Below, in pieces: positions 18,101 to 21,100 of a stretch of DNA of 64,000 nt (positions are counted from its first letter, which is position 1; each line of letters opens with the position of its first letter). This DNA comes from Owenia fusiformis (Eukaryota), in NCBI GenBank assembly GCA_903813345.2, contig CAIIXF020000001.1, positions 4,774,001-4,838,000 on the forward strand. The letters are read 5' to 3'. Position numbers and translations under genes: made by a program. The notes beneath the pieces are model-generated. The model had not been told where the DNA came from. It saw nothing but the letters and a program-made list of their open reading frames with translations, and searched no databases.

Positions 18101-21100
18101 ACTGTGTTACTCCCACGGTGGGGAAATTGACTCACTGTGTTACTCCCAGAGTATGGGATTTGACAGGCAAATTTCTATTTTGATAAAATTCCACCCCTTC
18201 CCACATAAGGGGCACTGAAAGGTACAAAGAGAACAAAGCAGTCTACTGCTGATTACACCTACCTATTCCCAGATACATCAAGCACATAGAGGTCCTTAAG
18301 GTAACCTATCTCTATAGGGAGGTGCATCACTCTATTGTACAAAGAGAACAAAGCAGTCTATGCTGATTACACCTACCTATTCCCAGATACATCAAGCACA
18401 TAGAGGTCCTTAAGGTTACCTATCTCTATAGGGAGGTGCATCACTCTATTGTACAAAGAGAACAAAGCAGTCTACTGCTGATTACACCTACCTATTCCCA
18501 GATACATCAAGCACATAGAGGTCCTTAAGGTTACCTATCTCTATAGGGAGGTGCATCACTCTATTGTACAAAGAGAACAAAGCAGTCTACTGCTGATTAC
18601 ACCTACCTATTCCCAGATACATCAAGCACATGGAGGTCCTTAAGGTAACCTATCTCTATAGGGAGGTGCATCACTCTATTGTACAAAGAGAACAAAGCAG
18701 TCTATGCTGATTACACCTACCTATTCCCAGATACATCAAGCACATGGAGGTCCTTAAGGTTACCTATCTCTATAGGGAGGTGCATCACTCTATTGTACAA
18801 AGAGAACAAAGCAGTCTATGCTGATTACACCTACCTATTCCCAGATACATCAAGCACATGGAGGTCCTTAAGGTTACCTATCTCTATAGGGAGGTGCATC
18901 ACTCTATTGTACAAAGAGAACAAAGCAGTCTATGCTGATTACACCTACCTATTCCCAGATACATCAAGCACATGGAGGTCCTTAAGGTTACCTATCTCTA
19001 TAGGGAGGTGCATCACTCTATTGTACAAAGAGAACAAAGCAGTCTATGCTGATAGCACCTACCTATTCCCTGATACATCAAGCACATGGAGGTCCTTAAG
19101 GTTACCTATCTCTATAGGGAGGTGCATCACTCTATTGTACAAAGAGAACAAAGCAGTCTATGCTGATTACACCTACCTATTCCCAGATACATCAAGCACA
19201 TGGAGGTCCTTTAGGTTACCTATCTCTATAGGGAGGTGCATCACTCTATTGTACAAAGAGAACAAAGCAGTCTATGCTGATTACACCTACCTATTCCCTG
19301 ATACATCAAGCACATGGAGGTCCTTAAGGTTACCTATCTCTATAGGGAGGTGCATCACTCTATTGTACAAAGAGAACAAAGCAGTCTATTGCTGATTACA
19401 CCTACCTATTCCCAGATACATCAAGCACATGGAGGTCCTTTAGGTTACCTATCTCTATAGGGAGGTGCATCACTCTATTGTACAAAGAGAACAAAGCAGT
19501 CTATGCTGATAGCACCTACCTATTCCCAGATACATCAAGCACATGGAGGTCCTTTAGGTTACCTATCTCTATAGGGAGGTGCATCACTCTAATGTACAAA
19601 GAGAACAAAGCAGTCTATGCTGATTACACCTACCTATTCCCAGATACATCAAGCACATGAAGGTCCTTTAGGTTACCTATCTCTATAGGGAGGTGCATCA
19701 CTCTATTGTACAAAGAGAACAAAGCAGTCTATGCTGATAGCACCTACCTATTCCCAGATACATCAAGCACATGGAGGTCCTTTAGGTTACCTATCTCTAT
19801 AGGGAGGTGCATCACTCTATTGTACAAAGAGAACAAAGCAGTCTATGCTGATAGCACCTACCTATTCCCAGATACATCAAGCACATGGAGGTCCTTTAGG
19901 TTACCTATCTCTATAGGGAGGTGCATCACTCTAATGTACAAAGAGAACAAAGCAGTCTATGCTGATTACACCTACCTATTCCCAGATACATCAAGCACAT
20001 GGAGGTCCTTGAGGTTACCTATCTCTATAGGGAGGTGCATCACTCTAATGTACAAAGAGAACAAAGCAGTCTATGCTGATTACACCTACCTATTCCCAGA
20101 TACATCAAGCACATGGAGGTCCTTAAGGTTACCTATCTCTATAGGGAGGTGCATCACTCTATTGTACAAAGAGAACAAAGCAGTCTATGCTGATAGCACC
20201 TACCTATTCCCAGATACATCAAGCACATGGAGGTCCTTAAGGTTACCTATCTCTATAGGGAGGTGCATCACTCTATTGTACAAAGAGAACAAAGCAGTCT
20301 ATGCTGATTACACCTACCTATTCCCAGATACATCAAGCACATGGAGGTCCTTGAGGTTACCTATCTCTATAGGGAGGTGCATCACTCTATTGTACAAAGA
20401 GAACAAAGCAGTCTATGCTGATTACACCTACCTATTCCCAGATACATCAAGCACATGGAGGTCCTTGAGGTTACCTATCTCTATAGGGAGGTGCATCACT
20501 CTATTGTACAAAGAGAACAAAGCAGTCTACTGCTGATTACACCTACCTATTCCCAGATACATCAAGCACATGGAGGTCCTTGAGGTTACCTATCTCTATA
20601 GGGAGGTGCATCACTCTATTGTCCCTCATGGAGAGCACACTCAGCTTAGTACACCGACCAATCTGAAATTACAAATGAATTTAATACTATAGGGTTGTTC
20701 CATGCTCACGTTGTCTAGAAATATTCTTTCCAGTCTATGAGAGTATAACATGGGCATAAGGTCCAGTCAATGATGATAAGGTGACCACGGCAAATGTACT
20801 CAAATATAATACTCCTTAAAATGTTTATGTTTGAGGAAAAATAAATAAGAACATGCGAGAGGGGGCTGTCTCAAGACACAATAAAGATATGAAAGCATGA
20901 TATGCAATCCATCACTGATTACAATCACTGCTATATATTGAATGCACCTTAGGGCCAACTCAACCTATATATGGCAATCTTATCTGGGGTGAAGCAGGTA
21001 GTGGTTTGTTAAACTCCCTTCATATTTTGCAGAAAAAATTTACACGTATTGCAACAAACAGTAACTACAGAGCACATTCCCTTCCCCTATTCAAACAACT

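Follow-up and report, generated by a model that had tools for sequence, protein, structure and literature searches.

A young, probably silent minisatellite across an exon-intron boundary of scribble in Owenia fusiformis that reiterates a donor site and an in-frame one-LRR segment

The stretch analyzed here, 64,000 nucleotides of the annelid Owenia fusiformis (assembly GCA_903813345.2, contig CAIIXF020000001.1, positions 4,774,001 to 4,838,000; hereafter the window, with positions counted from its first letter), carries on its minus strand a gene identified below as scribble, and across the boundary between the eleventh coding exon and the eleventh intron of this gene lies a large tandem array, which is the subject of this report. 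An exact protein-to-genome map of the 1606-residue gene product places 27 coding exons and 26 introns in the window, the shortest intron measuring 106 nt; intron 2 (40489-61460, 20,971 nt) is by far the longest intron in the window. In a protein search, a 55-residue open reading frame of the minus strand, which covers exon 7, matched this protein at 98%, and the named full-length homologues, which carry PDZ domains, measure ca. 1,250-1,900 residues and come from molluscs, spiders, echinoderms and annelids, are called either ‘protein scribble homolog’ or ‘lap4’; proteins of other families with leucine-rich repeats (LRRs) are also found among the matches of the 55-residue frame. Pfam assigns LRR_8, LRR_14 and LRR_4 as well as PDZ, the latter in four stretches (E = 1.2e-69), to the host protein. 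By its LRR block, its four PDZ stretches and its orthology, the host gene is identified at the level of sequence as scribble, a member of the LAP (LRR and PDZ) family, and the name given to it in an initial annotation of the window, which was made from the letters alone, is supported by these named homologues and domains.

LAP proteins contain about 16 LRRs at the N-terminus, with a period of 23 residues, followed by a conserved LAP-specific region (LAPSD). In the host protein, LRR motifs are found at a strict 23-residue spacing from residue 59 to residue 358, and the segment that follows the last LRR reaches 77-94% identity in fragments from other species, which cover 37-42% of the query. The peptide encoded by the repeated unit that is described below spans residues 347-369, joins the C-terminal half of one LRR to the N-terminal half of the following one, and thus represents one exact 23-residue period in register with the rest of the solenoid, which confirms the earlier proposal that the 23 residues represent one full LRR period.

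The array is framed by coding exons 11 and 12. Coding exon 11 (20547..20662, minus strand, 116 nt), which is placed by the exact map and by RNA, starts in phase 0 and ends with two nucleotides of a codon; its acceptor reads ...aatttcag/ and its donor ATAG/gtaggtgt (the slash marks the splice site), AATAG/gtaggt being the donor in use. Intron 11 (15954..20546, minus strand, 4593 nt on the exact map) is occupied to about half of its length by the array, with a unique remainder running from 18221 to 15954. Coding exon 12 (15781..15953, minus strand, 173 nt, exact map) starts with ACTTGAGTAC..., its first letters ACTT lying at 15953, and supplies the acceptor to which the exon 11 donor is joined. 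Coding exon 10 (24032..24115, minus strand), which is placed by the exact map and by its joints to exon 11, served as the positive control for junction detection. The exon numbers of the initial annotation, counted from the exon that carries the ATG, and its phase 2-2 arithmetic both hold on this map.

The minisatellite (18222..20622, read on the minus strand) was resolved as one tandem array with a period of 114 bp, 21.0 copies, 98% matches, a score of 4540 and no indels in the summary of Tandem Repeats Finder, and its layout was established by unit-by-unit dissection and by direct reading as well; among the arrays of the 64-kb window it alone has more than three copies. The sequence GGGAATAG/GTAGGT is present 21 times on the minus strand as identical sites by script count. 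Each monomer consists of 76 nt from the 3' end of exon 11 (ACAATAG and then a 69-nt segment, AGTGATGCAC...GGGAATAG on the minus strand), followed by the donor and by 38-39 nt from the 5' end of intron 11, which start with gtaggt and finish with ...ctttgttctctttgt. The array starts at 20622, 76 nt upstream of the end of exon 11, so that unit 1 (20615-20547) is real coding sequence and forms the 3' part of that exon, whereas the 20 extra units, from unit 2 (20500-20432) through unit 21 (18331-18263), lie in the intron. An amplified exon 11/intron 11 junction, as initially described, is thus borne out by the exon map and the unit dissection, and the array and unit coordinates that had been read from the letters (20432-20500 to 18263-18331) were reproduced exactly by Tandem Repeats Finder and by script.

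Within this array, dissection and site scoring delimit 20 pseudo-exons (units 2 to 21, 18263..20500, minus strand) of 69 nt each, all of phase 2-2. The frame of exon 11 is open in 20 of the 20 extra segments, and the exon 11 peptide is unchanged in 16 of them, the remainder being unit 18 (N>Y), units 19 and 20 (H>Y) and unit 21, which carries both substitutions. The spacers measure 45 nt, or 46 nt after units 1, 11, 18 and 19, and the partial spacer after unit 21 carries the same extra G as the 46-nt spacers. Every spacer opens with a copy of the donor and closes with a weak AG site; ...ctttgttctctttgtacaatag precedes each extra unit, with acattag in its place before units 6, 7 and 10. The description of 20 extra in-frame one-LRR segments, each with a donor and an AG, is formally true of every extra unit. 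In the same intron, 73 nt downstream of the large array in the direction of the gene, lies a short 33-bp repeat (18072-18149, 2.4 copies, 95%).

All bases of the monomer can be traced to the exon 11 and intron 11 sequence at the site itself, and for this reason an origin from a transposon or from a satellite of foreign derivation was considered and rejected. The boundary of the duplication shows a 2-nt microhomology (AC), the sequence after unit 21 reading ...ctctttgtAC/ctttcagtg and that of the exon ...gagggAC/aatagagtg (the slash here follows the shared dinucleotide). The units differ at nine variable alignment columns, five of them in the exon-like 69 nt and four in the spacer. Those in the exon-like part comprise column 34 (C, T or A, all encoding Leu), columns 43 and 61 (synonymous), column 29 (N>Y) and column 44 (H>Y), and those in the spacer comprise the dinucleotide 77-78, an indel at column 86 and an A/T variant at column 112, the source of ACATTAG. 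Along the array the variants occur in blocks, column 34 following the order C, T, A, T and the H>Y change being confined to units 19-21, while the extra G at column 86 is found in units 1, 18, 19 and 21 and is lacking in most interior units. Edge units that retain an ancestral state around a homogenized interior are the usual appearance of an array shaped by unequal exchange. The array may thus have begun when a segment of ca. 115 bp, from the exonic AATAG to the intronic ...ctctttgtAC, was duplicated in tandem at the AC microhomology; through unequal exchange or slippage in replication the array would then have reached 21 copies, in the course of which the interior copies would have been homogenized and the first and last few copies would have retained the ancestral extra G.

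The capacity of these units for splicing was assessed with an acceptor matrix derived from the 26 acceptors of the gene and a donor matrix derived from its other donors, both of which are small, so that the scores are indicative only. The donor copies score 6.9 bits, inside the range of the real donors and equal to the real donor of exon 11. The pseudo-acceptor scores 1.1 bits (4.2 bits for the ACATTAG variant), as compared with -2.0 to 12.0 bits for the 26 real acceptors under leave-one-out scoring (median ca. 7.4) and 8.8 bits for the acceptor of exon 12; the score of the pseudo-acceptor is reached or exceeded by 757 of the 2858 AGs in intronic sequence other than the array (26%). At the four positions before its TAG the pseudo-acceptor reads acaa, whereas a stretch of T occupies these positions in the real sites. 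The ‘new 3' splice site’ at the monomer junction that had been proposed therefore exists as an AG, but it is weak, being equaled by about a quarter of the intronic AGs.

Spacing presents a further obstacle. The gap between adjacent units is 45-46 nt, versus 106 nt for the shortest of the 26 real introns, and the sole A past the internal AGs of the spacer that stands at a workable distance from the 3' AG is found 20 nt from the donor. Splicing between neighboring units would hardly be feasible, because of this gap and because the lone candidate A lies so close to the donor, and the suggestion that any subset of the units might be spliced in is unlikely to hold, since adjacent units would require an intron of 45-46 nt. 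Judged against a cassette array with normal splice-site strength and with introns long enough to be workable, the scribble array has a normal donor, and it falls short in both its acceptor and its spacing.

Protein records give the same picture of a single unit. The 90% cluster of the host protein has five members, and the annotated isoforms contain the unit motif once in five of five cases, their length differences lying elsewhere (alignment columns 865-896, 1367-1427 and 1465-1519). According to the accessible portion of the genome report, the Owenia gene models were built on RNA-seq evidence, with StringTie/Trinity assemblies, Portcullis junctions, Mikado, Augustus and PASA (PMC9977687). 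A protein with two units was not found among 190 database proteins, five of which contain the motif, once in each. No own-species protein fragments over residues 318-400 were found, the best partial matches being to the conserved C-terminal segment of other species, a result that is neutral as to use of the units. One annotated cassette is present elsewhere in the gene, at coding exon 20 (10077-10172, 96 nt or 32 residues), which is included in the isoforms P0121, P0123 and P0124 and not in P0008 and P0122; the remaining isoform differences fall beyond the window, on the 3' side of the gene.

Raw reads were placed on positions 20420-24200 of the window, a stretch that comprises exon 10, intron 10, exon 11, one spacer and unit 2, using three stranded RNA-seq runs of one study (X21, X22 and X23) and one DNA run (X24); a joint was reported only where it was carried by at least three reads starting at two or more places in a run. 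Exon 12 lies outside the mapped stretch, so that reads across the exon 11/12 junction appear as loose ends rather than as joints. In runs X21, X22 and X23, respectively, the depth was 14.2, 11.6 and 16.9 in the exon 10 bin and 20.1, 16.4 and 25.1 in the exon 11 bin, and the exon 10/11 joint (20662>24032) was carried by 15+4, 13+1 and 27+0 reads, the second figure referring to a one-letter variant, for a total of 60. At the three-read threshold, no joint between units (20547>20500) was found in any of these runs, compared with 19, 14 and 27 reads for the exon 10/11 joint. In X23, the loose ends of 13 reads at 20547 share a consensus (agreement 1) that equals positions 15924-15953 of the window, the start of exon 12, letter for letter; these reads pass from the unique part of exon 11 across a single unit and continue in exon 12. 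The hypothetical unit-to-unit junction is not present in the genomic DNA, as originally stated, and its 18-mer has no match in the window with up to one mismatch allowed. The RNA junction search that the initial annotation had proposed, for which it had named in advance an exon 11/12 junction found alone as the outcome contrary to its claim, gave exactly that result, at modest depth: the exon 11/12 junction was seen and no unit-to-unit junction. Inclusion of the copies in mature mRNA, as in a functional cassette array, was not detected in these runs, and for pseudo-donor use above ca. 15% only the most upstream donor is used, as in arrays of the type of F7 IVS7 (intron 7 of the human F7 gene). 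The further proposal that the units are used to build an LRR solenoid of tunable length is not supported, given one unit in all five isoforms and no unit-to-unit joint listed.

Two stop-free frames traverse the array on the plus strand (18649-19395 and 19661-20536, 248 and 291 residues). An antisense gene was considered for these frames and rejected; they are a by-product of the period (114 = 38 x 3), and no antisense RNA depth was found over the mapped array bins in the three stranded runs.

The intactness of the units is readily accommodated without function. Of the minimal mutational events, the exon-like 69 nt account for at least six and the 45 nt of spacer for 4-5, which is the same density, and on this comparison of the sequences the exon-like part is under no extra constraint relative to the spacer. 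In fact, only 1% of the possible substitutions in a unit create a stop, and an array as young as this one would be free of stops by chance in 94% of cases; because the array is young and an absence of stops is to be expected, the intactness of all 20 units carries no weight.

Taken together, the array is likely to be a young intronic minisatellite, the first monomer of which lies across the exon 11/intron 11 boundary, and to be silent, the whole of it being removed with intron 11; it is most likely neutral. In such a scheme the array would repeat the donor of exon 11 twenty times, and the in-frame one-LRR pseudo-exons would arise by accident. The spliceosome would pick the most upstream donor, which alone is attached to a properly defined exon, and would pair it with the strong acceptor of exon 12, and the silence of the copies would result from three causes: the weak acceptor, the proximity of the units at 45-46 nt, and a 5'-to-3' choice of the first among identical donors.

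Several observations weigh against this reading. Among the matches listed, the loose end that marks the exon 11/12 junction is explicit in X23 only, and the bin that holds the spacer and unit 2 (20420-20546) has a sense depth of 4.65, 3.42 and 3.22 in X21, X22 and X23, where two adjacent bins of intron 10 have none. With 16, 4 and 11 reads fitting two places equally in these runs, this depth may be made up of canonical reads that fit units 1 and 2 equally, plus reads of pre-mRNA in which 20 units collapse onto one. The sensitivity is limited, ca. 6-12% of each of the three RNA runs having been read, from samples with no stated tissue or stage; a Poisson estimate based on ca. 20 reads of the junction in each run excludes inclusion at levels higher than roughly 15-20%, and lower or stage-restricted inclusion is compatible with the data. 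Four of the six minimal events in the exon-like part are synonymous versus 23% expected (one-sided binomial p = 0.027), and this excess, which comprises six events with one site hit twice and was computed without a mutation model, is a weak hint of selection on coding capacity. Finally, independent support for the array from DNA reads is absent, X24 having zero depth on unique sequence.

Alternatively, one or a few non-adjacent units might be spliced in in some tissue or stage, in a regulated manner or at a low level, to give a Scribble protein with at least 17 LRRs. Each of the 20 units has an open frame, the right phase, the LRR register and a donor of real strength; the substitutions among units lean toward synonymous ones, both amino-acid changes fall at variable LRR positions, and the introns leading to non-adjacent units would measure at least 159 nt, with inclusion below ca. 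15% compatible with the reads. Such use nevertheless appears quite unlikely in the face of a unit-to-unit joint listed in none of the three RNA runs against 60 reads of the exon 10/11 joint, a second unit in none of the five RNA-seq-informed isoforms, an acceptor matched or beaten by 26% of intronic AGs, and an exon-like part that is conserved no more than the spacer in an array too young for its intactness to count. A more specific form, in which, at certain stages or in certain tissues or individuals, the first donor is joined to the accidental acceptor of a non-adjacent unit, would add LRRs and could make solenoid length a heritable trait that varies with copy number; this is judged very unlikely, and if true it would mean that an exon family had been caught at birth, with the synonymous lean as the first trace of selection.

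A role at the level of RNA is likewise decidedly improbable. Here the 20 decoy donors would bind the U1 small nuclear ribonucleoprotein and tune the kinetics of intron 11 splicing, or use of a downstream donor would lead to nonsense-mediated decay, and it is consistent with such a role that the donor copies are identical to a functional donor, that a retained spacer would give an immediate in-frame stop (TAG is the first in-frame codon after AG/G), and that human IFI6 and CBS use two pseudo-donors of arrays of this kind, as the accessible portion of the relevant report describes (PMC1557585). Use of downstream donors was not seen in the reads, however, and the depth in the array bin is low even though 20 units collapse there. 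That the array or its copy number is not present in the animal and was introduced in assembly is the least probable of the alternatives and may be regarded as remote. The missing DNA support bears on it, X24 having zero depth on exons 10 and 11, on the array bins and on the other non-repeat bins, while its repeat-like parts carry 100% other letters; the sample behind X24 was apparently divergent or unsuitable for some other reason. The units differ from one another, and their nine variable columns form a position-structured pattern that is unlike assembler stutter. Moreover, the accessible text of the genome report describes a reference built from PacBio reads (170 Gb in all, read N50 25-30 kb; PMC9977687), and if the window comes from that published reference, such reads would span the 2.4 kb many times.

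In a literature search, no publication linking Owenia with scribble was found, and the literature on exonization of variable number tandem repeats (VNTRs) and on tandem exon duplication provided general background only. Tandem exon duplication with spliced copies is known from the kringle IV-2 repeats of LPA and from Dscam. Like the tandem exon duplications described in the accessible portions of two reports (PMC8373072, PMC6071210), the scribble array is a local duplication of coding sequence within a gene, with in-frame copies that each encode a whole structural repeat. Those duplications, in contrast, comprise complete exons with native acceptors that are spliced (PMC8373072, PMC6071210), whereas the scribble copies are a partial exon with an accidental, weak acceptor, for which no splicing was seen.

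A closer parallel is provided by minisatellites that span exon-intron boundaries, which have been described in the human genes F7, IFI6, CBS, LMNB2 and PDGF (PMC1557585; the accessible portion of this report is the basis of the comparisons that follow). In F7 intron 7, a 37-bp VNTR of 5-9 copies has its first monomer across the exon 7/IVS7 boundary, with 4 exonic bp, and the identical downstream pseudo-donors are functional but silent, the most upstream donor being chosen by a 5'-to-3' process, as was established by experiment (PMC1557585). The authentic, upstream-most donor alone is used in three of the five genes (F7, LMNB2 and PDGF), while IFI6 and CBS also use two pseudo-sites; the arrays of LMNB2 (100-bp monomer, 10-15 repeats) and PDGF intron 4 (81 bp, 16-18 repeats) belong to the former group, and those of IFI6, also named 6-16 (intron 2, 25 pseudo-sites), and CBS (intron 13, 15-20 monomers), in which the two most proximal pseudo-donors are used, to the latter (PMC1557585). 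The scribble array shares with F7 a first monomer across the exon-intron boundary, as its start at 20622 and its 21 donor sites demonstrate, and an authentic donor followed by identical pseudo-donors, of which the most upstream is used. It differs from F7 in its dimensions (114 bp, of which 76 are exonic, in 21 copies) and in its AG-framed, in-phase 69-nt pseudo-exon, the F7 array forming no pseudo-exon. Arrays of the F7 type vary in copy number among alleles, and the figure of 21 copies in scribble comes from a single assembly. The F7 scanning mechanism was defined in mammalian cells, and its extension to the annelid scribble would be by analogy. LMNB2 and PDGF resemble scribble in monomer size, copy number and use of the authentic donor only, although these mammalian genes are unrelated to scribble, and IFI6 and CBS resemble it in having reiterated donors downstream of the authentic one; unlike in these two genes, pseudo-donor use was not seen in the scribble reads, a low level of which would be below detection. 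On these comparisons, the scribble array is a new, invertebrate case of the known intronic minisatellites that span an exon boundary, with the additional twist that its copies constitute complete in-phase one-LRR pseudo-exons.

The array thus offers an annelid example of a minisatellite that repeats a functional donor 20 times, with copies that are ignored by the spliceosome in the available data, and provides a natural test outside the mammals of how the first 5' splice site is chosen, whether by 5'-to-3' scanning or exon definition as opposed to proximity to the acceptor. The decoys are more tempting than those of F7, each of them being accompanied by an AG site and an in-frame pseudo-exon. 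The array also carries a warning for annotation, since gene finders may call both the long spurious frames on the opposite strand (248 and 291 residues) and the pseudo-exons. Should the units be shown to be spliced, they would provide a rare snapshot of exon birth by duplication of a partial exon in a conserved polarity gene.

The reads placed on this part of the gene revealed three further features. At 20654 in exon 11, a plus-strand C>A change is carried by 8 of 24 RNA reads in X21, 9 of 20 in X22 and 10 of 32 in X23; the coding-strand change, CGG>CGT, leaves Arg unaltered and represents a synonymous polymorphism that is found in all three runs. The last base of exon 10 (24032) is replaced by another letter in 4 of 19 (X21) and 1 of 14 (X22) of the reads across the exon 10/11 junction, a coding-strand G>T change (GAG>GAT, E>D) at donor position -1 that looks like a polymorphism. 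In intron 10, a repeat-like element (22795-23470) is covered by RNA reads to a depth of 30-76 on one strand and of 6-22 on the opposite one, far above that of the scribble exons, with many loose ends at 22858, 23022 and 23371-23376, and reads of the DNA run stack on it with other letters; the element probably represents a transcribed transposable element present in multiple copies, with many genomic copies contributing reads.

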